From positions 1-17,059 of IMG/VR virus record IMGVR_UViG_2579778535_000004: a DNA stretch of 17,059 nt; one strand, 5' to 3'. Source of the stretch: a virus (Duplodnaviria > Heunggongvirae > Uroviricota > Caudoviricetes). Numbering within the stretch: the stretch's first letter is position 1; each line of letters opens with the position of its first letter. Under the pieces are notes generated by a model, which made no database searches, was not told the DNA's origin, and saw only the letters and a list, made by a program, of their open reading frames with translations. Below, one piece after another: positions 308 to 14,302 of this stretch. The translations under genes and the position numbers were made by a program.

Positions 308-649
308 TTACTCCGGATATTTAAAAATTACGTAGGTATGCGAAGGGCAGAGTTTGTTAAGCACACACTCGACAACGGTGTCGCCCCAGATACGCAGTGC
401 GGAATCACAGGGACCGGGTTTATTCAGCGCGTCAATCAGGCGATCGCGCTGGTCAAAGCAGTCATCTCCCACCACATAAGCCGTGATGGACGGGCGGAAA
501 GTGATTTTCCCCAGGTCTTCGGTATAGGGTTTGTCGCGGTTCGGGTATTCGTGCGTTTCCACACGACGACCGGTTCCCGCACTTTCTTCTTCAACCTTAA
601 ACGGCACACCGCGAAATGACGCGTCCTGAAGTCTGTCTTTCCACGTCAT
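308..649 (-). CDS. Mu N-like DNA circularisation protein, N-terminal domain only (truncated, about 113 aa versus about 490 aa in Mu)
   Basis: The track ORF 308..691 contains [19 protein letters not shown]...HEYP, typical of the DNA-circulation N-terminal domain. The likely start is the ATG at 647-649, which has GGAG 6 nt upstream. The stop at 308-310 is followed immediately by the next gene. Confidence 0.5.
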
Positions 650-709
650 ATAAACTCCGTACATAAAAAATCCCACCGGAGTGGGACTCATTAACAGATT
701 AATTTTTCA

Positions 710-2545
710 TTACCTGCCAAAGCGCGTATAGCCAACATCATGGCTGACATCAAAACCGCTGGATCGCGTTTCCATAACCCGCATACCCGGAGGCGAATTC
801 ACAAAAGAGACCTTGATCTCACCATCAACTTTTGGCGCAGAAGCTTTGTTGATCATGAAGGGATTCGGGCCTGTGGCACCGGAGGCGTTGTTTGCCTGAG
901 CCGGATCCACCGCCGGATAAGGAGTGTATCCCCGTGGCGGTATTCCCGTCCCATAAGCATCATAAGCACCCGCGCCCCACTGCGCCGAGTTAATGGCATC
1001 GACCGTGTCACCGGAACTGTCGGTAAACCATTCAATAATCGGCTTCAGCTTGTCCCACATATCCTGAAACCACTTAACAACCGGTCCCCAGTTATTGATC
1101 ACCATCCCCAGCGGCGACCAGGCAAAAACCTTCTTCAGAAGTTCCCAGCCTGCCTCAAAATAAGGACCAATAGTTTCCCAGAGCTTCTTGAAATAAGGTC
1201 CGACAACATCCCAGTTAGTGATAATTAATCCCGCAGCCAGAGCAATCGCCGTCGCAATCATGCCAATCGGCGTCATCGACATGATCCTGCTGACAATACT
1301 GATGGCACCGCCCACGCCCATCAATCCCAGTTTCAGAATCGCAAGACCGGCAGCAAGCCCGACGACGCCGCGAATAACCCGGGGATTTTCATCCGCAAAC
1401 TTCGTGAATTTCTCCCCCAACTCCCCCAGCCACTGCGTGATGTTCTTAGCGTCACCAGAAAATGCGCCGCCAATAGCCGCAAGGCCGTTAGTTGCGGTCC
1501 CCGTCATTGCCTCCCACAGGTTGGACAGCGTACCAAGCTGGGCCTGAACACGTTTATTCAGGCTGGCCTGTTTATTCATCTTCTGCTGGATCTGATCGTA
1601 GCCATCCTTTCCTTTATCGATCAGCGCATTGACCACCTGAAGGGTTTCGGCATCATCACCAAATATTGCCTTAAGTACACCGGTTCGCTTAACGTCGGTC
1701 AGTTTTCGCAGCTTTGCCAGTTGCCTGAACATGTTATCAAGACCGCCAAAACTCCCTTTGCCATCAGTAAAATCGAGCTGTACCCCGAGTTTCTGGCGGG
1801 CCATGATTTTATTGACGTCCCTGATTTTCTTAACGCTTAATCCGGACTGGATAACTTTTCGCAGGGCATTACCTGCCGACTCCCCGTTCATCCCCATTTG
1901 ATCCATCATGACACTGATGGGGGCAAGACTCTGTGCAGCCTGAAGACCGTCCTTGTTCACCATCTTCAGAACAGAGCTGGTTTTAGTGAAGAATGACAAC
2001 ATGTTGGTGTCGTCAACGCCCAGATAAAACGCCTTCTGAATTGTGTCGAACAGCCCCATCATGTCTTCTGAGGCCGTTCCGGTAGCATCCTGCATCTTTG
2101 CAGCAAACTCAGCAGCCGCTTCCGGTGTTTTTTTCAGTTGTACCGCAAGATAAGCTGTCGCTTTACCCACACCACCAAGAATGTTTTCTGCCGGGATCCC
2201 CTGACGCACCAGCATCTGCATCATGTTCTGGAAATCAGCCGTTGTACCGGGTAGCTGGTTACCCAGGCCAATAGCCAGTTTATTGATGTCCTGAAAGCTC
2301 TTTCCAACCTCGCCGTTCGCATCCATCATGGCGACTTTCAGCCCGGTGGCGGCGTTTTCCTGATCGGCATAAGATTTCAGGGAAAGCGTCAGACCTGCTG
2401 CCAGTCCGCCACCAAGCGCCAGCCCACCCTGTGACGCTTCTTCCGCCTGGCGTTTAAATCCCCGGATTTTCTTTTGCATTTTCGACAGCGCGGGAGAAAG
2501 CCTGTCGACACCGGTGATCAACGCCTTAAGCTCAAATTCAGCCAT
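710..2545 (-). CDS. Tail tape measure protein
   Basis: 611-aa ORF directly downstream of the chaperone pair. It has an Ala/Gly/Gln-rich helical N-terminal half and hydrophobic, Trp-rich C-terminal segments typical of tape measure proteins. Confidence 0.85.
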   Translation of the reverse strand: MAEFELKALITGVDRLSPALSKMQKKIRGFKRQAEEASQGGLALGGGLAAGLTLSLKSYADQENAATGLKVAMMDANGEVGKSFQDINKLAIGLGNQLPGTTADFQNMMQMLVRQGIPAENILGGVGKATAYLAVQLKKTPEAAAEFAAKMQDATGTASEDMMGLFDTIQKAFYLGVDDTNMLSFFTKTSSVLKMVNKDGLQAAQSLAPISVMMDQMGMNGESAGNALRKVIQSGLSVKKIRDVNKIMARQKLGVQLDFTDGKGSFGGLDNMFRQLAKLRKLTDVKRTGVLKAIFGDDAETLQVVNALIDKGKDGYDQIQQKMNKQASLNKRVQAQLGTLSNLWEAMTGTATNGLAAIGGAFSGDAKNITQWLGELGEKFTKFADENPRVIRGVVGLAAGLAILKLGLMGVGGAISIVSRIMSMTPIGMIATAIALAAGLIITNWDVVGPYFKKLWETIGPYFEAGWELLKKVFAWSPLGMVINNWGPVVKWFQDMWDKLKPIIEWFTDSSGDTVDAINSAQWGAGAYDAYGTGIPPRGYTPYPAVDPAQANNASGATGPNPFMINKASAPKVDGEIKVSFVNSPPGMRVMETRSSGFDVSHDVGYTRFGR

Positions 2546-2956
2546 GTGTGCGTTTCTCCTGCTCTATCCTGTTTGCCTGACTGACCAGTAAGGGAATTTC
2601 ACTGATCGGCATATTCAGCAATTCGAAAGGATTAATGCGCCAGTAACTGGCGCAGTCAAAGAAGCGATCAGTGAGGTATTCAGCCGTCAGGCCTGGAGGA
2701 AAAAACCAGCCACAAGCCACGCCGCTGCATTCAGGTCTGCCGGAGACATCTGGTCGACAGAGCTTTGCGGCACTTTCGCCAGCCGCACAATGTATTTCGA
2801 TACCACATGCGCCAGAAGTCTGACGGACTCATCCTGATTCATCTGGTAGGGATACCCCAGCTCGCGGACATCTTTCCCGGTGGGCTCATCAAACTCCAGT
2901 ACGGAGAGTGTCTCGCCATGAGCGGTAATCGGTTTCTTTAACTCAAGCTCTTTCAT
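2538..2956 (-). CDS. Tail assembly chaperone long form made by programmed -1 frameshift
   Basis: The -1 frame from the slippery site (plus-strand A-run 2701-2706) stays open to the stop at 2538-2540 and matches the C-terminal 55 aa of track ORF 2538..2720 (FFPPGLTAEYL...). The product ends 8 nt inside the tape-measure start. This is the arrangement conserved in phage tail chaperone genes. Confidence 0.55.
2687..2956 (-). CDS. Tail assembly chaperone (short product)
   Basis: 89-aa ORF between the tube and tape-measure genes. Its start overlaps the tube stop as TAATG. It ends just after a T TTT TTC slippery run. Confidence 0.75.
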   Translation of the reverse strand: MKELELKKPITAHGETLSVLEFDEPTGKDVRELGYPYQMNQDESVRLLAHVVSKYIVRLAKVPQSSVDQMSPADLNAAAWLVAGFFLQA

Positions 2957-3312
2957 TACTGGTAATCCCCTTCTTCACCGTGGAACTCAAGATCAACCGT
3001 CCCTTCTTCGGCATTATGGTTTGCTTCGCCGTGCAGCCAGGCAGACGACAGTACATAGACCTGACCGTTCGCCAGCTCGGCTGTGATGGTCATCTCATCA
3101 GACGAGGTGATTTTGCTCACCGGAAAATTCTTCGGCACCTTGAAGGTCCCTTTAACATAAGGCGCACGGTGAGTTTCCTTGCGGTCCACTGAACCGTCCA
3201 GGCCGATGATGTCATCATTGACCGTCCTGTTCATGGGCACCTCAATGCCGCCGGTCAGCGATAGCTGCTGACCGTCAATTTTGAAATAACAGGTTCCCCC
3301 GATACGGGCCAT
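2956..3312 (-). CDS. Tail tube protein (Mu gpM-like)
   Basis: 118-aa ORF placed immediately upstream of the chaperone and tape-measure genes. It has an AGGAG ribosome-binding site, and an upstream reading frame ends TAATG on its start. Confidence 0.65.
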   Translation of the reverse strand: MARIGGTCYFKIDGQQLSLTGGIEVPMNRTVNDDIIGLDGSVDRKETHRAPYVKGTFKVPKNFPVSKITSSDEMTITAELANGQVYVLSSAWLHGEANHNAEEGTVDLEFHGEEGDYQ

Positions 3313-3583
3313 TATGCGGACTCCTCTGAATACTGAAGACGGAACTGGTTAACCACGGCAAAGACACGCAACTGGTTAACATAGTCAGGCGGGAACAGCG
3401 TGTTCAGGCGGTTCGGATCGCTGGCATCACGCTCCACAACCAGGTACTGCTTAAAAAGTTCGTAGTTTTCCACGATCCCCGCACGCTCAAGCTGACGGTA
3501 GCGATGGTGTATTGAGGCTGGCTATCTTCCTTCGCGAAGGATGCAAGGTCTTCAAACTGCTTAGCTGTAAGAACCACTGTCAT
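3313..3583 (-). pseudogene. Gene remnant read in two frames, possibly the 3' end of a tail sheath gene at a deletion junction
   Basis: Minus-strand ATG at 3583 opens a 59-codon frame (MTVVLTAKQFEDLASFAKEDSQPQYT...) that stops at 3404. A second frame, open from about 3521, carries protein-like sequence (...ELFKQYLVVERDASDPNRLNTLFPPDYVNQLRVFAVVNQFRLQYSEESA) and ends TAATG on the tube start, but has no ATG. Confidence 0.3.
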
Positions 3584-3619: not shown

Positions 3620-3864
3620 CGCGATTGCTCAATCGTTCGGATGTCCGCTTTATCTCTGTTACACTGCCCCAGCGCCAACAACAAGCTGACATTCAAATCC
3701 AAACTGCCTCCATAGGTCAGCGGCTCAGGAATAGCTGGTTGCAGTGTTTCAGTGGTCAGATTCGCCGGTAATGGCACCGCTGGAACTGGCACGTAAACTG
3801 TCCGCGTACTTCCGCAACCGGTCAGCAGCGGCAGCAGGCACAGCACGTGAAGCACAATCATCAT
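3607..3864 (-). CDS. o-spanin (Rz1-like outer-membrane lipoprotein)
   Basis: Alternate frame beginning inside the Rz gene: MMIVLHVLCLLPLLTGC with an LTGC lipobox, then a proline-rich stretch. About 38 codons are embedded in Rz and the frame runs on past the Rz stop. Confidence 0.6.
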   Translation of the reverse strand: MMIVLHVLCLLPLLTGCGSTRTVYVPVPAVPLPANLTTETLQPAIPEPLTYGGSLDLNVSLLLALGQCNRDKADIRTIEQSRTSQ

Positions 3865-4141
3865 CCGCAACAGCCATTTTGATATCTTCCTGGGTTCTCT
3901 GTGACTCCAGTGTGCTCTGCTGTTTTGCATGCTGGTTAGCCTCCAGTACTGTATTGACGATTTGCAGTGATTGCAGGACGTTATTGGTAATGGCAGTTGC
4001 CGATTTGGCATTTTGTACAGCCTCATCAGCACGTTTCTTTTCGTGCTGATATTTGCTGTAGTAGTAGTTGGCTGACCAGATGAAAGAACTGACGACAGTA
4101 AAAAGGAAAGCAGCGATAACCAGCTTATAGCTTAACTTCAT
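3749..4141 (-). CDS. i-spanin (Rz-like)
   Basis: 130-aa ORF with an N-terminal transmembrane helix (LVIAAFLFTVVSSFIW) and a charged, helical remainder. It starts within the 3' end of the endolysin gene. Confidence 0.7.
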   Translation of the reverse strand: MKLSYKLVIAAFLFTVVSSFIWSANYYYSKYQHEKKRADEAVQNAKSATAITNNVLQSLQIVNTVLEANQHAKQQSTLESQRTQEDIKMAVADDDCASRAVPAAAADRLRKYADSLRASSSGAITGESDH

Positions 4142-4601
4142 TTACCACCCCACCAGCCTCTTTAAATCGGGCAATCAGGTCACCGATTTTATGTTCATAC
4201 TGACCGTAACCTGCACCAGGTAACGACGCCCAGATATTGCTGCACCGGTCGATTGCCTGACGGATATCGCCGCGATCAATCATCGGTAAAGCACCTCGCT
4301 CTTTAATCTGCTGCAATGCCACTGCGTCCTGGCTTTTGGGGGAGAAGTCTTTCAGAGCAAGCTGTTTACGGTATGCATCCCACCAACGGGAAAGAAGCTG
4401 GTATCGCCCGGCAGCCGTTGATTTGAGTTTTGGGTTCAGCGTGACAAGTTTGCGAGGATGATCGGAGTAATCAGTGAACAGTTCGCCTCCCACAATAACG
4501 TCATAACCGTGGTTACATGTCGGTTGCCGTCCGTTATCAGTTCCTTCTGACCATGCCACCATATCGAGGAAAGCTTTACGCTGGGAATTTAGTACCTGCA
4601 T
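4125..4601 (-). CDS. R: Endolysin, lambda R-like lytic transglycosylase
   Basis: The 158-aa translation is close to identical to lambda R as I remember it (NSQRKAFLDMVAWSEGTDNGRQ...GYDVIVGGELFTDYSDHPR...DRCSNIWASLPGAGYGQ). Confidence 0.9.
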   Translation of the reverse strand: MQVLNSQRKAFLDMVAWSEGTDNGRQPTCNHGYDVIVGGELFTDYSDHPRKLVTLNPKLKSTAAGRYQLLSRWWDAYRKQLALKDFSPKSQDAVALQQIKERGALPMIDRGDIRQAIDRCSNIWASLPGAGYGQYEHKIGDLIARFKEAGGVVNEVKL

Positions 4602-4604
4602 AAA

Positions 4605-4931
4605 TTACTCCTTAGAGCCACCAAACTTATTACCGATTACTCTCATTGCAGCCCCACGAATAGCATCGACACCGATCAACCCAACGCCACCACCAATGGC
4701 AACAGAAAGCGATTTAGGCCATCCGACATACTCAAGAGCGGATGCAAAAGTCAGCGTCAGAGCGCCACAGAGTAGAATTTCGAGTGTTTTTCGCTTCCAG
4801 CCACCACCACCGCCAAAATAGGCAATGCGCAAACCAGCCATAACAATCGACATAATCACTGCGCCCAGCGGTGTGTCTCCACGCCACCAGCTCTGGACCA
4901 ACTCCAGCCAGGTATTTGGGTTATGAGGCAT
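4605..4931 (-). CDS. Holin
   Basis: 108-aa ORF immediately upstream of the endolysin. It has two to three hydrophobic helices and a charged C-terminus, with GAGGTGAGAG upstream of the ATG. Confidence 0.7.
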   Translation of the reverse strand: MPHNPNTWLELVQSWWRGDTPLGAVIMSIVMAGLRIAYFGGGGGWKRKTLEILLCGALTLTFASALEYVGWPKSLSVAIGGGVGLIGVDAIRGAAMRVIGNKFGGSKE

Positions 4932-5082
4932 TTGTAGTTATCTCTCACCTCGCTGATACAGCAGGTGCAAATTGAGGAAACATCATGTACCGCAAATCAG
5001 AAGCGGAAACGTCAAAGAAGCCGAGTCAATGGATAACTGCGGGATAGACCAGGCCCAACGAATCCCTAGGCCCAGAAACGAC

Positions 5083-5105
5083 AAAACCCGCTCGACGGCG
5101 GGTTT
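5083..5105 (-). terminator. Perfect 8-bp-stem hairpin, possible tR'-like terminator of the late leader
   Basis: AAACCCGC-6 nt loop-GCGGGTTT. On the minus strand the stem is followed by TTTTGTCGTTTCT. It sits between the cassette and the holin. Confidence 0.3.
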
Positions 5106-5151
5106 AAGCTGTGTGGCGAAGTAACCACTCTTAACAGATTACAATGATTTT

Positions 5152-5179
5152 TGCGTACGCGTTAGCATTTTCGTAAAAT
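5152..5179 (+). promoter_or_regulatory. Candidate sigma70 promoter for the nuclease-methyltransferase cassette
   Basis: TTGCGT at 5152-5157, a 16-nt spacer, then TAAAAT at 5174-5179, about 30 nt upstream of the ATG at 5211. Found by eye only. Confidence 0.25.
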
Positions 5180-5210
5180 ACATTACCTTGCAACCATTTC
5201 AGTATAAAAA

Positions 5211-7001
5211 ATGAGCACAGAATTAAAACTAAAGAAAATTATGGCATCGTCTAAAATTGAGCCATTTATTAGACATATTCGTTTTCCTTTTTTTAAAAAC
5301 CTTGCAGAGGGTAGCAAGATTGATTTTGAGTATCCAATTACAGCATTAGTTGGTCAAAACGGAACCAATAAAAGTTCTGTTTTAAGAGCCCTATTCGGTT
5401 CTCCAAACAACTATTCTCTGGGTAGCTTATGGTTTTCTACAGATGTAGATGAGATTAAAGATGGTGGTCGTTCTAGATTTATTTATGGATATTATGACAA
5501 AGCTACTGATTCAATTGTTGAAGTAATTAAAACTCGAATCTCTAAAGAAAATGATCCTGATTACTGGGAACCATCCAGACCATTAAAATCCGACAACATG
5601 GCTCCAATGCCTAGTACAACAATCTCAACCAATCAACTAAGGACTAGGTGGAAAGCTATTGACAAAAATGTAATATATTTAGATTTCAGAGCAACTATCA
5701 GTGCATTTGATAAGTTCTTTTATCACTCTGATTTTCATACATACCCTAAGAAAGATTATCTTAGAAAACGCAGTCAGATGCTAAAAGACATTATAGATAA
5801 CGATCTTAAAAAATATCAACCTCATAAAGGAAAAAAAGACAAGCTATTTGTTAACACTTTATTAGAAAAAAGTAAGGTAGAGGCAATCAGCAAGATTTTA
5901 GGTCGCAAATACACAAGCATCCGCCTTATTGAACATAGCTTATTCACTAATGACAAAGCTCCCACAATTATTCTTCAATCAGAAAACTTAAAATATTCTG
6001 AAGCTTTTGCAGGCAGTGGGGAATTTGCTGTATCTATATTAGTGCATAAACTAATGGATAGCCCTGATGCATCTTTAATTCTGCTAGATGAACCTGAAGT
6101 ATCACTTCACCCTTCTGCTCAATGTCAATTGATGGAATTTTTATCAGAACAAGCACTTAAAAAGAAACATCAAATTGTCATATCCACACATTCATCAACA
6201 ATAGTAAAAGACTTGCCTAAAAATGCCATAAAATTATTCTGTCTGAATGATAAAATAGGAAAGGTTGATGTTCTTCAAAATGTCAGTCCAGAAGAATCTT
6301 TCTTTATTCTTGGTGAACGCATTGATAAAAGAACCGTTATTGTAGAAGATCGGTTAGCGAAGAGGTTTGTAGAAAAGGCGCTTAAAGCGGGTGGTGAAGC
6401 ATTATTAAACTCCTTCGAAGTAAAACATGTTCCTGGAGGAGCGGGAAGTATTCTTCAAACTTTGGCTGTGCCTTTATGTGTTGCCAATGTTAAAAACGTT
6501 ATTTTCTTATTAGATGGTGACCAATCGAGAACTGATGATTATCCAACTTCTGATTCCATACCAGAAAATCAAAACACAAACCTTCAAAACATCATAAAAA
6601 AAATAACCAATCAAGATATAAAATTTAGTTGTGATGGTTCTAATGGCTCATCAAATAACAATCAAAAATACAAAATGCAAAGAAATTTTATCGATTTCAT
6701 CCACGATAAAATTGCTTTTCTTCCTGTTTATACTCCTGAAGCATTTCTTATTGAGAATGTTCATGGTGATTATAAAGAATATAAAGATCAAATCCCCAAA
6801 AACATTCAAGATGCTAAAGAAATCACCAAAGAACTTTGTAAGTTAGACACAGGGTTGGAGAACGTTACCAGTGACGATATCTTTGAAACACAAATCAGAA
6901 TTCTTAATAAAATACCAAATAATCATGAAGTGTTAACAAAAACTCGAGAGTTGCTGCAAATCTTTTTAGATAATGATACTATCAGACCAAGAGTGAGGTA
7001 G
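5211..7001 (+). CDS. Predicted OLD/Gabija-GajA-like nuclease: N-terminal ABC-type ATPase fused to a C-terminal TOPRIM domain
   Basis: 596-aa ORF with a P-loop LVGQNGTNKSS, Walker B ILLDEPEVSLHP, a STHS H-loop-like motif, and a C-terminal TOPRIM pattern (TVIVEDRLAKRF...NVIFLLDGDQS, about 60 aa apart). Hand counts give about 27-30% GC here versus about 45-55% in flanking lines. Confidence 0.65.
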   Translation: MSTELKLKKIMASSKIEPFIRHIRFPFFKNLAEGSKIDFEYPITALVGQNGTNKSSVLRALFGSPNNYSLGSLWFSTDVDEIKDGGRSRFIYGYYDKATDSIVEVIKTRISKENDPDYWEPSRPLKSDNMAPMPSTTISTNQLRTRWKAIDKNVIYLDFRATISAFDKFFYHSDFHTYPKKDYLRKRSQMLKDIIDNDLKKYQPHKGKKDKLFVNTLLEKSKVEAISKILGRKYTSIRLIEHSLFTNDKAPTIILQSENLKYSEAFAGSGEFAVSILVHKLMDSPDASLILLDEPEVSLHPSAQCQLMEFLSEQALKKKHQIVISTHSSTIVKDLPKNAIKLFCLNDKIGKVDVLQNVSPEESFFILGERIDKRTVIVEDRLAKRFVEKALKAGGEALLNSFEVKHVPGGAGSILQTLAVPLCVANVKNVIFLLDGDQSRTDDYPTSDSIPENQNTNLQNIIKKITNQDIKFSCDGSNGSSNNNQKYKMQRNFIDFIHDKIAFLPVYTPEAFLIENVHGDYKEYKDQIPKNIQDAKEITKELCKLDTGLENVTSDDIFETQIRILNKIPNNHEVLTKTRELLQIFLDNDTIRPRVR

Positions 7002-7004
7002 ATA

Positions 7005-8045
7005 ATGGCTAAAAAGATACACGTTTACGATTTCTTTTCCGGCTGCGGCGGAACCAGTGTAGGCCTAAAAGCGGTGGGAATGGAAATTATTTTCGGTTTA
7101 GATATTGATCTAGACTCCGCTAACACCTTTAAAATGAATAATCCATTTGCACATTTTATCAATGGTGATATCAAAGATACACACGTTGAGGAAATTAAGC
7201 ATCTGGTTTGTGCGTCAACACAAAGCAAAGCTCTAACCCTATTTTGTGGTTGTGCTCCATGTCAACCATTCTCGAAACAAAATAAAATACGGAACGAGGA
7301 TGATCCGAGAAAAGATCTGCTTACTGAGTTTGCACGGTTTGTCTCTTATTATACGCCAGACTTTGTACTGGTAGAGAATGTACCAGGAATCCAAAATGTC
7401 GATATTAACAATGGAAATTTCCAGAAATTTCTTGAGATTTTAGCACATCATCACTACAACGTTGATTTTGGTGTGATTCCTGCGTTGTGGTTCGGGGTTC
7501 CTCAAACACGTGAACGTTTTGTTTTACTGGCGTCAAAACACACGAATATTAAGCTTCCATCACAAACTCATGATGGGTTAAAAACTCCGTATGCAACTGT
7601 CAGAGACTGGATCGGCGGATTACCTCCTATTGCTGCCGGTGAAACTCATAAAGATGTTATGGATCATACAGCAGCCAAACTATCTGATCTAAATATTAAA
7701 CGTATTAAAGCGACTCCTGAGGGAAAAGGTAGAGAATCTTGGCCTGAAGAACTTATACTAAAATGCCATAAAAAATATAAAGGGCATACTGATGTTTATG
7801 GACGGCTTTCTTGGGACAAACCAGCAAGTGGATTAACAACTAGATGTATAAGCTATTCGAATGGACGTTTCGGACATCCAGAGCAAGATAGGGCTATTTC
7901 TGTTAGAGAGGCTGCGTTATTACAGACTTTCCCATTAGACTATTCCTTCACAGGCTCTTTAGTCTCGAAAGCCAAACAGATAGGGAATGCAGTCCCTCCC
8001 AAGATGGCTGAAGCTCTTGGAAGGGCTATCATCGCATCACTTTAA
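7005..8045 (+). CDS. DNA (cytosine-5)-methyltransferase
   Basis: Motif I FSGCGG, motif IV GCAPCQPFS with the catalytic Cys, motif VI LVENVPG, motif VIII PQTRERF, motif X QIGNAVPP, in canonical order. The ATG is 4 nt after the upstream stop, so the two genes are probably co-translated. Confidence 0.9.
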   Translation: MAKKIHVYDFFSGCGGTSVGLKAVGMEIIFGLDIDLDSANTFKMNNPFAHFINGDIKDTHVEEIKHLVCASTQSKALTLFCGCAPCQPFSKQNKIRNEDDPRKDLLTEFARFVSYYTPDFVLVENVPGIQNVDINNGNFQKFLEILAHHHYNVDFGVIPALWFGVPQTRERFVLLASKHTNIKLPSQTHDGLKTPYATVRDWIGGLPPIAAGETHKDVMDHTAAKLSDLNIKRIKATPEGKGRESWPEELILKCHKKYKGHTDVYGRLSWDKPASGLTTRCISYSNGRFGHPEQDRAISVREAALLQTFPLDYSFTGSLVSKAKQIGNAVPPKMAEALGRAIIASL

Positions 8046-8055
8046 AAGCGGAGCC

Positions 8056-8412
8056 CTAGAGGGCTTCGCCTAACAATAATAGAATACCTGATATAAACCC
8101 TATAGCTCCCTGAAGCTCTTTTCTAATTGCTCCATCAGAGCATTTTCTTTTCTTAGCAATGGTGCGTAATGAGATACCAATCACAAAATGAGCAATGATC
8201 AGCTCATATTCTTCTGGTTTATACTTCCGCAGGCGGGCGACACAGCCATCAATCATGATGCCTTCATCATCATCACACTGAATCCGGGACTTTCTGCCAT
8301 GAGGTAAAAGCCCCTTGAAGCCAGCGGCTACCGGTTGCCAATCCACACCACTGTTCTCTGCCGCAGCCCACGCTCCCCAACGGTCTAATACTTCATACAT
8401 ATCACACATCAA
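8056..8412 (-). CDS. Late-gene antiterminator Q (Phage_antitermQ family)
   Basis: 118-aa protein with VLDRWGAWAA...AAGFKGL...CDDDEG...C, matching the Q family of several lambdoid prophages as I recall it. It sits between the nin-like genes and the lysis region. Confidence 0.8.
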   Translation of the reverse strand: MMCDMYEVLDRWGAWAAAENSGVDWQPVAAGFKGLLPHGRKSRIQCDDDEGIMIDGCVARLRKYKPEEYELIIAHFVIGISLRTIAKKRKCSDGAIRKELQGAIGFISGILLLLGEAL

Positions 8413-8426
8413 CTTTCTCCACCAAA

Positions 8427-9422
8427 TCAGGCTAGCACACCAATTGCCAACGCACGGTCGATAAAACGAAATATCAGCTCCAGCTGGGAGCCATACTTCT
8501 CTTCAAATGCCACGGTATCCGCATGCAGCTCGTCGTGATGCTTTCTGCACAAAGGCAACACAAAGAGGTCATGCGCTTTTGTACCCATTCCGCCCTGACC
8601 GTGGCCTATCAGGTGGTGGGGATCATCAGCAGGTTTTCCACAACATGCGCACGGCTGCGTCTTAACCCAGCGCGTGTACTTTTCATTAACCCAGCGGTGA
8701 CGTTTTGGGCGTAACATAAAAGACTCCGGCGACTCCGGATCCACTTTCAGCGCCAGCACCTTTTTCGCCTTATCCTGGATGATGCTGGTGGCAGGAACCG
8801 AAGGCACAAGGTCACTTTCCCGGGTAACAGACGGCACAACAGGCTTCGGTAATCTCAGTGCCTTACGGGCTGCACTTTCCGGTAAGGCATCCGCCAGATC
8901 ATTACGAATCAGCCACCAGCACAGTTCCGGCATTGTCACAACATGACTGTCATCAAAACCGAGATCCCGACGCACAACAGACAACACCCAGCGGGCACAG
9001 TTATCCGTTGCCATTGATTCCAGCCGTTCCGTGAACTGATCGCGCAGCTGGTTATCGCAGTGCCAGCACAGACGGATTGCGCCCGGAGCGTGTCGCATTG
9101 TTGTCATGTTCTCGCTGTGCCAGTCGGAATGAGGCCACTGGCAGCCTTTTTCACGAAGTAACCAGCTTTCAAGACATTCCACGCCACCAGCACGACGGAT
9201 CACTGCCTCATTGCGGAACACGGCCAGAACGGCAGGATCATCCGCCAGCGGTTGTGATGCCGCCGGAACAGCACCACTGGCGAAAGATGAATAACGTTCC
9301 GGCTCAGGCTCCAGCAGGACACGCCCCTGCATAAACAGGGGCATCAGCTCTGAACCTGGTCTGAACAATACGATCCCCATACGCGGGGCAATTTCAGGGG
9401 TCAGTAGTGCTCTCACGGTCAC
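8427..9422 (-). CDS. DUF968-family phage protein with an HNH-like zinc-finger C-terminus
   Basis: 331-aa ORF whose C-terminus reads CACCGKPADDPHHLIGHGQGG...LPLCRKHHDELH. Its position next to Q matches the usual placement of DUF968 genes in lambdoid prophages. Confidence 0.7.
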   Translation of the reverse strand: MTVRALLTPEIAPRMGIVLFRPGSELMPLFMQGRVLLEPEPERYSSFASGAVPAASQPLADDPAVLAVFRNEAVIRRAGGVECLESWLLREKGCQWPHSDWHSENMTTMRHAPGAIRLCWHCDNQLRDQFTERLESMATDNCARWVLSVVRRDLGFDDSHVVTMPELCWWLIRNDLADALPESAARKALRLPKPVVPSVTRESDLVPSVPATSIIQDKAKKVLALKVDPESPESFMLRPKRHRWVNEKYTRWVKTQPCACCGKPADDPHHLIGHGQGGMGTKAHDLFVLPLCRKHHDELHADTVAFEEKYGSQLELIFRFIDRALAIGVLA

Positions 9423-10252: not shown

Positions 10253-10642
10253 TCAGGCGGCTGCACCCGCCGTTTTCTCGTACTTACTGATAGTGATCTC
10301 GACCTTCCCTTCCGGGATAACCGGTCCCCACTCCACCAGCATTCTTTTCACCTGACTGTCGTCTTCCCACACACCCGCGTGGGTCAGGGCGTCAAACAGC
10401 GCCTTGTTATAGTTGTCCAGATCGCGGATCCGGTTATCCGGAGGAAACAACACGATCTCCACTGAAGCAGGTGCCGACGTTGGTTTTGGCAGACGACGTA
10501 ACTGCTCAACTATTGCTGCACACGCCGCGCTCTGGAATTTGCGCCCCGCCGCGCTTATCAGGCTCTTACCTGCAAACGCCCCTTGGTTGGGGTGTCGCCA
10601 GTACGTGTTCACGCTGGGCGGAAAAGGCAGTATTAGCTTCAT
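10253..10642 (-). CDS. rusA: RusA-family Holliday junction resolvase
   Basis: 129-aa protein with LPFPPSVNTYWRH...RDLDNYNKALFDALTHAGVWEDDSQV, the RusA signature. Its start forms an ATGA overlap with the upstream gene. Confidence 0.85.
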   Translation of the reverse strand: MKLILPFPPSVNTYWRHPNQGAFAGKSLISAAGRKFQSAACAAIVEQLRRLPKPTSAPASVEIVLFPPDNRIRDLDNYNKALFDALTHAGVWEDDSQVKRMLVEWGPVIPEGKVEITISKYEKTAGAAA

Positions 10643-10965
10643 ACTTTCAGCTCCCTCTCATGTAACCAGTGGGCTGCACGCAGCCTGGCGTTTTCCTCAC
10701 CGGCAAGCAGTGAGCGGATAATCCCGACCGCCTCGCTGTCGTCGTCCTTCACCGCGGTATGAAGCGTTATCCCCCGGGCCACGCCACGCTTTATCGTGAT
10801 GACGCCTTTTTTCTCCAGTGCGCGAAGATGCTCCACCGCTGCATTCACTGAACGGTATCCCAGCATGGTTGCCACCTCCTGATTGGTTGGCGGAAAGCCA
10901 CGCTCTTTCTGGTAAGAAATCAGCATATCCAGCACCTGCTGCTGGCATTGAGTTAACGTCGTCAT
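10639..10965 (-). CDS. LexA-like N-terminal DNA-binding domain protein with no peptidase domain
   Basis: MTTLTQCQQQVLDMLISYQKERGFPPTNQEVATMLGYRSVNAAVEHLRALEKKGVI parallels the LexA winged-helix domain. The start at 10963-10965 is chosen because it overlaps the upstream stop as TAATG. Confidence 0.6.
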   Translation of the reverse strand: MTTLTQCQQQVLDMLISYQKERGFPPTNQEVATMLGYRSVNAAVEHLRALEKKGVITIKRGVARGITLHTAVKDDDSEAVGIIRSLLAGEENARLRAAHWLHERELKV

Positions 10966-11459
10966 TACGCCCCCACGTAATTCCCTGACAGATACCACTC
11001 ATCACTCGATACAGCGCGCTTGCTGCTTTTCCGTAAACACTGCTCACGACGCGCCAGAAAATTGTTTCGTTCTGGCTGGGAGTGGCTTTCACGGAATGCC
11101 ACCACCCACACCGTTGCAGCACGACGGTATAAGCCCCTGGACTCCAGTTCTTCCGCCTGGCGGGTCAGGCACAAAATCTCCCGCGGGTCGTTAGTGCCGA
11201 CATAGAAATTGCGCACAGGTCTGGTTTCACGAACTGATTGCGGTTCCGCCTCCTGCGCTCTCTCAGTCAGGCGCGGGAAATGTCTGCGTGTATCCCCTTC
11301 ACAACGGTGAGCCACACGACCACTCTGACGTAACTTGCTTGCTGACTGCAGAACGCGCTGCCGTGAGTAACCTGCAAAAGCATCCGCAATGTCTCCGGAA
11401 GTACACCCCGGATGGGCTTCAATGAATTTCTGAACGTCATTCAAAAGACTCATGCTCAC
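10965..11459 (-). CDS. Putative PerC/Pch-like regulator
   Basis: The C-terminal half has RGLYRRAATVWVVAF...ARREQCLRKS, resembling the GLWRRAA-RW motif of PerC-family activators. This is a memory-based call and unverified. Confidence 0.4.
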   Translation of the reverse strand: MSMSLLNDVQKFIEAHPGCTSGDIADAFAGYSRQRVLQSASKLRQSGRVAHRCEGDTRRHFPRLTERAQEAEPQSVRETRPVRNFYVGTNDPREILCLTRQAEELESRGLYRRAATVWVVAFRESHSQPERNNFLARREQCLRKSSKRAVSSDEWYLSGNYVGA

Positions 11460-13627: not shown

Positions 13628-14302
13628 ATGAAAACAATCCATGACATCCGGCGGTCTAACGCCAGAAAACTGAGAGATGGTGTAGGCGGGAATTCTTCCT
13701 TTGCCACTATGATTGATCGCGAGCCAACCCAGACCAGCAGGTTTATGGGAGATGGTGCTACTAAAAATATCGGTGACAGCATGGCACGACACATCGAAAA
13801 ATGTTTCGACCTGCCTGTCGGATGGCTCGATCAAGAACACCAGACAACCAACATCACAAAAAAACCTGATGTTTCAATCACTAATAAACAAATCACATTA
13901 GTCCCTGTCATATCATGGGTACAGGCCGGAGCATGGAAAGAAGTTGGATATTCTGAGGTTGATTTGAGCACAGCAGAAACGTATCCCTGCCCTGTACCCT
14001 GTGGGGAAATGACTTATATCTTGCGGGTGATAGGTGATTCAATGATTGATGAGTACCGCCCGGGAGACATGATTTTTGTCGATCCTGAAGTACCTGCCTG
14101 CCACGGTGACGACGTTATTGCATTGATGCACGATACAGGTGAAACCACCTTCAAAAGGTTGATAGAAGATGGGACACAGCGTTATCTCAAAGCGTTAAAC
14201 CCAAACTGGCCTGAGCCTTACATTAAGATCAACGGTAATTGCTCTATAATTGGAACTGTGATTTTCTCAGGAAAACCAAGAAGATACAAAATCAAAGCCT
14301 AA
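13628..14302 (+). CDS. CI-like repressor (HTH plus S24 LexA-type autopeptidase domain)
   Basis: 224-aa ORF with an N-terminal HTH, an Ala-Gly cleavage site (VQAGAWKE), the catalytic Ser in VIGDSM and a Lys in TFKRL. Confidence 0.85.
   Translation: MKTIHDIRRSNARKLRDGVGGNSSFATMIDREPTQTSRFMGDGATKNIGDSMARHIEKCFDLPVGWLDQEHQTTNITKKPDVSITNKQITLVPVISWVQAGAWKEVGYSEVDLSTAETYPCPVPCGEMTYILRVIGDSMIDEYRPGDMIFVDPEVPACHGDDVIALMHDTGETTFKRLIEDGTQRYLKALNPNWPEPYIKINGNCSIIGTVIFSGKPRRYKIKA

Follow-up and report, generated by a model that had tools for sequence, protein, structure and literature searches.

The window, by which we mean the whole 17,059-nucleotide stretch of viral DNA analyzed here, is an E. coli lambdoid prophage, and several complete genomes are 98-99% identical to it over 4.5 kb. 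Its minus strand carries, in this order, immunity and replication genes, RusA, a KilA-N protein, a DUF968 protein, the antiterminator Q, and the first late genes, which encode a lambda-type holin, a lysozyme, and a spanin (Table 1). A cI-like repressor with an S24 peptidase domain is encoded at 13628-14302, and an early operon protein (10639-10998) that consists of a LexA DNA-binding domain only adjoins a PerC-like regulator (10965-11459). Directly after the lysis genes lies a C-terminal remnant of a tail sheath gene, and the region beyond it (308-3312) encodes a tail tube, a chaperone, a tape measure, and a DNA-circularisation protein. No terminase, portal, or head genes were found in the window; the prophage is therefore defective, and its late circuit is possibly no longer under selection.

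Q matches the Pfam model PF06530, which corresponds to the Q21 family (Yin and co-workers, PMC9388147). It is a protein of 117 amino acids, and the start annotated in its relatives is the ATG at 8409 in the window. Identity to the 162-residue Q21 is about 27%, and the match to the Q21 structures 6p18 and 6jnx is distant and weak (E 0.003). Between Q and the holin, a cassette of two genes is encoded on the opposite strand. The first, an ABC-type ATPase, matches the PADLOC models HEC-04 (E 2e-36) and ATPase-Toprim_I-B (E 3.5e-25); the second, a C5 cytosine DNA methyltransferase, matches MTase_II (E 5e-91) and also DruM. Each gene thus matches defence-family models, and no single named defence system spans both. 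The G+C content of the cassette genes is 32-40%, compared with 47-56% in the surrounding backbone. Judged by composition and model matches, the two-gene cassette is foreign and defence-like. A version about 75% identical to it is found in other E. coli strains (loci L006 and L007).

Table 1. Features of the Q-to-lysis region of the window and their coordinates
Feature	Position	Strand	Basis or remarks
Antiterminator Q, Q21 family	8056-8412	-	PF06530, E 8.8e-44
Junction hairpin spanning the Q stop codon and the 10-bp gap	8048-8069	-	9 pairs, G+C-rich
C5 cytosine DNA methyltransferase, second cassette gene	7005-8045	+	PF00145, E 8e-59; convergent with Q
ABC-type ATPase (AAA_15/AAA_21), first cassette gene	5211-7001	+	Pfam; annotated as ATP-dependent nuclease in RefSeq relatives
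Candidate cargo promoter	5151-5179	+	-35 TTGCGT 5151-5156, 17-nt spacer, -10 TAAAAT 5174-5179
Candidate late-promoter unit	5165-5076	-	About 90 bp, conserved
Invariant block CTAACGCGTACGCAAAAA	5165-5148	-	With weak -35 CTAACG (5165-5160) and promoter spacer
-10-like hexamer CATTGT	5146-5141	-	TATTGT in most relatives
-10-like hexamer TAATCT	5141-5136	-	Overlaps CATTGT by one base
Invariant start region GTTAAGAGTGGTTACTTCGCCACACAGCTT	5135-5106	-	Contains TAAGAG
Candidate tR' hairpin	Stem 5105-5098/5091-5084, loop 5097-5092	-	Terminator scan and folding
T-run TTTTGTCGTTT	5086-5076	-	Begins inside the 3' arm of the hairpin
Holin leader, terminator to holin	4932-5075	-	Part of the lysis module
First late genes	3749-4931	-	Pfam PF05106 and RefSeq annotation of relatives
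Lambda-type holin	4605-4931	-	PF05106
Lysozyme	4125-4601	-	RefSeq annotation of relatives
Rz-like spanin	3749-4141	-	RefSeq annotation of relatives
Tail-sheath C-terminal remnant	3312-3473		Directly after the spanin

The stop codons of Q (TAG, 8058-8056) and of the methyltransferase (TAA, 8043-8045) face each other across exactly 10 bp (8046-8055), the distance given in the initial annotation of this DNA. That annotation had also argued that a late promoter has no room just after Q, and the point holds more widely: in some relatives, the gene in this place, here called cargo, overlaps Q by 8-21 bp. The 10-bp gap forms the 5' half of the junction hairpin, which has the Q stop codon at its center and after which the Q strand continues with UUUUAAAG. 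The predicted folding energy is -14.8 kcal/mol on the minus strand (z -2.35) and -17.1 kcal/mol on the plus strand (z -4.5), and a U-run is present on the Q strand only. Because UUUUAAAG follows on that strand, the hairpin could serve as a terminator, at the convergent junction, for transcripts of Q and the early genes. Most other cargo types likewise carry a G+C-rich hairpin that coincides with the Q stop codon or lies just beyond it.

A perfect hairpin with a U-run on the minus strand, which the initial annotation had pointed out upstream of the holin, is indeed present. The holin start (4931) lies 153 bp downstream of its 8-bp stem (5084-5105), which comprises eight perfect pairs, five of them G-C, around a 6-nt loop, and is followed on the minus strand by TTTTGTCGTTTCT. 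Taken alone, this candidate terminator is modestly above chance: the z-score of the 57-nt fold is -2.4, and 11 terminator-like sites were found in the region, where 3.6 are expected. It is significant because it is conserved in relatives. Under a strict rule, hairpin and U-run are present in 38 of 49 unique variants, which include compensatory changes and replacements by non-homologous hairpins. Thus, an intrinsic terminator (stem and U-run together spanning 5105-5076) lies just downstream of the predicted transcription start and ahead of the late genes.

The segment immediately upstream of the hairpin has the layout of a promoter. The invariant block is conserved at close to 2 bits per position and is followed by two overlapping -10-like hexamers, the more conserved of which has the form TAnnnT (5141-5136). 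In 37 unique segments, the T, the A, and the final T of this hexamer are invariant (2.0 bits each), and the middle three positions carry 0.7-0.85 bits, which in an alignment is the pattern expected of a sigma-70 -10 element. The -35 hexamer on the late strand matches the consensus at three of six positions, with an 18-nt spacer. A consensus promoter scan of positions 4400-8900 called no promoter in 5100-5210 on either strand, because such a -35 match is under the threshold despite the good -10 hexamers. A -10 element inside the invariant block was also considered and was rejected, as there is no T at position -7.

From this anatomy we infer a start site. The TATTGT register (5146-5141) would give the geometry of phage 21, with TAAGAG at +2; since either -10 register may be used, the predicted start is placed within 5135-5128, and the pause element is uncertain. 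TAAGAG resembles TAAGCTG of phage 21, aligns with AACGAT of lambda, and is a candidate sigma-dependent pause element, which would be transcribed or not depending on the -10 register. The start region as a whole is invariant in our alignment and nearly invariant across Q clades that are 49-57% identical. Within it, TAAGAGTGGTTACTTCGC matches positions +1 to +18 of lambda pR' (lambda 44587-44604) at 13 of 18 positions, and this likeness despite unrelated Q proteins suggests a shared signal for pausing of the host polymerase. The terminated RNA is predicted to be about 45-55 nt long. An Rfam search of 4800-5400 returned two chance-level matches only (E 0.6-0.9) and no known RNA family. The core of the block, GCGTACGC, is a palindrome, unlike the direct-repeat Q-binding element (QBE) of phage 21. 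Judged by its position and conservation, the block is a candidate Q-binding element; it may also be conserved simply as two back-to-back -35 elements.

Comparison with relatives delimits this unit on both sides. Other E. coli prophages with the same Q and holin have unrelated genes in the slot between them, always on the opposite strand and abutting or overlapping the end of Q. In pairwise BLAST comparisons, backbone homology on the holin side extends from 4402 to 5165-5179; on the Q side, it begins at 8092-8119. Bases 5166-5210 belong to the cassette. The holin leader is homologous in loci L001-L004, SfII, and SfIV and is absent from three loci (L005, L007, and L008) in which other late regions follow the same Q and cassette; by homology, it accompanies the S-type holin rather than Q. 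Accordingly, the placement of late-promoter elements at 4932-5210 in the initial annotation stands for the middle part, 5076-5165, and fails for the holin leader and for the cassette edge at 5166-5210.

Elsewhere, Stx-type or essD-type late regions follow this Q and the same cassette or a diverged form of it, and homology starts exactly at 5083. This position is the outer (3') edge of the hairpin, where the recombination breakpoints lie. In total, the same cassette and the same Q were found joined to three different late regions. Several phages match the window only at 5083-5180; in these, Q is 91% identical and lies about 1.5 kb off. Because these homology boundaries fall at the edges of the unit, we conclude that 5076-5165 travels with Q and not with the lysis genes or the cargo, and it is the only conserved non-coding DNA that accompanies the Q type of the window.

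Among the IMG/VR loci, 75 have enough flanking DNA and a Q 83-100% identical to that of the window. The block is present in all 75, always 626-5400 nt downstream of Q and never adjacent to it; the distance in the window is 2.9 kb. A unit directly after Q was thus not found with this Q type. [quoted passage not shown] These relatives lend support to the suggestion of the initial annotation that the cassette sits between Q and the late promoter and terminator, unlike stx genes, since the unit follows Q where cargo is lacking. Nor do relatives without this cassette keep the same distance between Q and the lysis genes, a point that the annotation had raised against itself: the spacing follows the cargo and ranges from 0.6 to 5.4 kb.

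The sequence of the block depends on the Q clade. It is AACGCGTACGCAAAAA in clade A (the window, SfII, and Stx2a_1447), ACGCGGTCCGCA or GTGCGGTCCGCA in clade B (SfIV, mEp390, and EH2201), and TTTACGTACGTAAAAAA in clade C (the porin phages, with quuD-type Q); the corresponding block of phage 21 is ATTGAGCAAATGAGCA. The transcribed part of the unit is almost unchanged across the clades. This variation would fit a block that is read by Q and a remainder that is read by the host polymerase; physical linkage could yield the same pattern.

The Q side of the slot has a different character. When Q was used in a tblastn search of the phage collection, every match was limited to residues 1-100. Since backbone homology starts only at 8092-8119, the last 12-21 codons of Q (8056 to about 8118) fall into the variable segment, and the C-terminal tail of Q indeed varies with the cargo type, in agreement with the tblastn coverage. 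Codons 97-117, approximately, encode a hydrophobic C-terminal tail, GFISGILLLLGEAL in the window, which is swapped with the cassette. The Q proteins of clades B and C have a longer conserved tail (..RLEMD..), and a gap precedes their cargo.

These observations bear on the possibility that the late promoter has stayed at or inside the 3' end of Q, or lies in the cassette, that the cargo is crossed by antisense read-through, and that the hairpin at 5084-5105 acts only as tR' or shields the lysis genes as a terminator. A Q-modified polymerase does read through kilobases of DNA and many terminators according to the literature, and the growth of phage 434B despite an IS5 in its cargo is allowed by this model and by a displaced promoter alike. 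However, the DNA on the Q side varies with the cargo while residues 1-100 of Q are conserved, and a matched Q-binding site therefore cannot be on that side; moreover, a hairpin stands directly after the Q stop codon in most cassettes. The 189-bp gap between Q and cargo in the porin phages would offer room for a promoter, but it is taken up by two hairpins, and no promoter is evident in it. The -10 signature and the invariant block, on the other hand, lie immediately upstream of the terminator hairpin, and the whole unit directly follows Q in the cargo-free relatives. We consider a promoter at Q quite unlikely.

Among 83 loci, we distinguished 27 cargo types, and in every type the largest open reading frame is antisense to Q. 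Nine of 20 representative cargo types match known or candidate defence families in PADLOC (PD-Lambda-5, PDC-S42, PDC-M53A, PDC-S33, PDC-S60, a caspase-like family, and an RT-associated MBL/LmuA-like family), and the rest are uncharacterised. The same architecture occurs in isolated phages, including SfII, SfIV, mEp460_4F5, Stx2a_1447, the porin phages, and 434B. In the single genome of Stx2a_1447, an antisense cargo precedes the unit and stx follows it, and the IS5 of 434B, which does not prevent growth, lies inside the cargo. The slot therefore looks like a cargo hotspot in the usual sense, with variable genes of foreign composition at a fixed place, a candidate promoter, and hairpins at the Q end. 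Going by these comparisons, it is recurrent and holds at least 27 different cassettes, some of them in isolated and propagated phages, and this is where the initial annotation, which had envisaged a single insertion of the present cassette, must be revised. In the literature, we found no paper that states a cargo slot between Q and pR', only general remarks on cargo downstream of Q (e.g., PMC8579659). Both the presence of cargo downstream of Q and the antisense porin genes are nevertheless long established.

The same evidence speaks to the idea that a one-off insertion cut Q from its promoter in a decaying prophage and left non-functional debris. The prophage is defective, with a sheath remnant after the lysis genes and neither head nor terminase genes, and the G+C content of its cassette is foreign, all of which would suit such a history. 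Yet the architecture recurs with other cargoes in isolated phages and in dozens of viral contigs, the same cassette and Q are found on three different late regions, and Q, block, -10 element, and terminator are all intact in the window. As an explanation of this locus, debris is highly improbable.

The cargo has a candidate promoter of its own, from which transcription is predicted to begin near 5186, some 25 nt ahead of the ATG at 5211. The -35 hexamer of this promoter lies inside the invariant block, and its -10 hexamer lies at the edge of each otherwise unrelated cassette; the late and cargo promoter-like sites are therefore arranged back to back. On the cargo strand, TTGCGT is followed by TAnnnT at 17-18 nt in 34 of 37 unique relatives. 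In the cargo-free Stx2_EH2201 (L018, 790-830), TTGCGG and TACTTT, separated by 18 nt, lie opposite pR' and point into the 3' end of Q. Such an antisense promoter may be older than the cargo slot.

The regularity of this cargo-strand promoter, and the palindromic block, which could bind a dimeric regulator, raise the question whether the unit mainly controls the cargo, as a promoter with a shielding terminator, and the late genes are transcribed from some other promoter, such as the RpoE-dependent one of DLP12. Rueggeberg et al. are said to have described RpoE control of the DLP12 lysis cassette, and the same group reportedly found in 2013 that DLP12 Q bound a promoter upstream of essD. A published primer, described as starting at -121 of the DLP12 lysis promoter, maps to 3183-3202 of the 434B/DLP12 locus (L015), inside the 5' end of nmpC. 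The start reported for DLP12, on which a published reporter construct is based, would then belong to a different promoter, which we place about 350 nt upstream of the unit, and this placement favors control of the cargo. Because an RpoE-dependent start is used in the literature, other promoters also feed DLP12-type lysis genes. Nevertheless, the unit is equally conserved directly after Q in the 16 cargo-free phages, a cargo promoter needs neither an invariant transcribed region on the late strand nor a terminator, and both layout and size match pR' of phage 21. We therefore regard a unit that serves mainly the cargo as very unlikely.

Our preferred reading, to which we give a probability of roughly 0.8 on the comparative sequence evidence, is that the late promoter-terminator unit lies away from Q, at about 5165-5076 on the minus strand, with the cassette in between, in a slot whose content appears to be swapped by recombination. 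By analogy with phage 21, we infer Q binding, Q dependence, and the activity of both promoters as follows. Host RNA polymerase would start constitutively at the unit, within GTTAAGAG, and be halted by the hairpin. Q, once bound to the block AACGCGTACGCAAAAA, would load onto the paused polymerase, which could then read through the terminator and transcribe the genes for holin, lysozyme, and spanin and those that come later. The cassette, 3 kb long and low in G+C, faces against late transcription and is probably transcribed from the promoter that contains TTGCGT; the hairpin over the Q stop codon probably insulates it from transcription on the Q strand. Cassettes would be exchanged by homologous recombination, with the body of Q on one side and the promoter unit on the other, and this would account for the cargo-dependent sequence of the last 12-21 codons of Q.

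The displaced unit can be read further, as a two-way switch, although we hold this extension to be tentative and rather doubtful. The 16-18 bp block would serve both as the Q-loading site and as the -35 element of the cargo, making the slot a socket for cargo that is expressed in lysogeny only and shut off by Q. Lysogens would transcribe the cargo, which is often a defence system. Since the cargo strand lacks a U-run after the junction hairpin, the cargo transcript could run antisense into Q and help to hold Q down, as paQ does in lambda and phage 21. As Q built up, it would occupy the block and late transcription would surge, which together would silence the cargo promoter, and the replicating phage would be spared from its own defence cassette. 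Any cassette that recombined into the slot would acquire an instruction to be expressed only in lysogeny.

Descriptions of lambdoid late control put pR' directly after Q. If our reading is correct, there is a clade of the Q21 family, common in E. coli and Shigella, in which a cargo slot parts Q from the late promoter, and in such prophages, including some Stx2a phages, this promoter should be looked for near the first late gene and not near Q. Lysogens should express cargo that precedes the unit, such as the present cassette, and cargo that follows it, such as stx, should be expressed on induction. The slot can be searched for with two landmarks, residues 1-100 of Q and the motif CTAACGCGTACGCAAAAA ... 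GTTAAGAGTGGTTACTTCGCC. The overlap between the -35 element of the cargo and the probable Q site suggests a link between the expression of defence genes and the choice between lysis and lysogeny.

The closest known system is that of phage 21 (Yin, Kaelber and Ebright 2019), with which the window shares a PF06530 Q and a unit of about 85-90 bp whose elements come in the same order; both would be expected to yield a terminated transcript of about 50 nt with a TAAG-type element at its start. The unit annotated in phage 21 (OL657228) begins 6 bp beyond the Q stop codon and fits a -35, a spacer that contains a 16-bp QBE, a weak -10, the transcription start, the pause element TAAGCTG at +2, and the terminator into 85 bp. 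The QBE fills the same place in the promoter as the invariant block of the window. However, it consists of two 8-bp direct repeats next to a perfect -35 element, whereas the block of the window is palindromic and its -35 is weak, and the unit of the window is 2.9 kb from Q, behind antisense cargo, rather than 6 bp.

In stx phages, as in the window, accessory genes lie between Q and the lysis genes. The stx genes, however, are located after the unit, are co-oriented with it, and are expressed by Q-dependent read-through, whereas the cargo of the window is located before the unit, is reversed, and has its own candidate promoter. The porin morons lc (PA-2) and nmpC (DLP12; qsr', J02580, and 434B) are more similar, as they are antisense genes between a PF06530-family Q and the lysis genes, with a homologous promoter-terminator unit between cargo and holin. 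They differ from the window in the Q clade (49% identity), in the block, in a full Q C-terminus, and in the cargo itself, which is a porin. Their 189 bp between Q and cargo contain two hairpins, and we saw no convincing promoter there. In Lambda_4C10 (L012, 1838-2025), the U-runs of the hairpins in this gap face opposite ways, so convergent transcripts would overlap by about 100 nt. The IpeX RNA of DLP12 is reported from about this place. The Casjens/Young annotation of 434B lists no late promoter.

Variable cargo in this neighborhood is known outside these phages as well. In APSE, a variable toxin module lies directly after a PF06530-family Q, a recurrent position among converting phages (PMC8579659). 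The phage hotspot described in 2022 (PMC9122126) resembles the slot of the window in that a fixed site holds many alternative, often defence-related cassettes. Those phages belong to another family and the flanks of their hotspot are different, whereas the slot in the window splits a regulator from its target promoter and shares DNA with that promoter.
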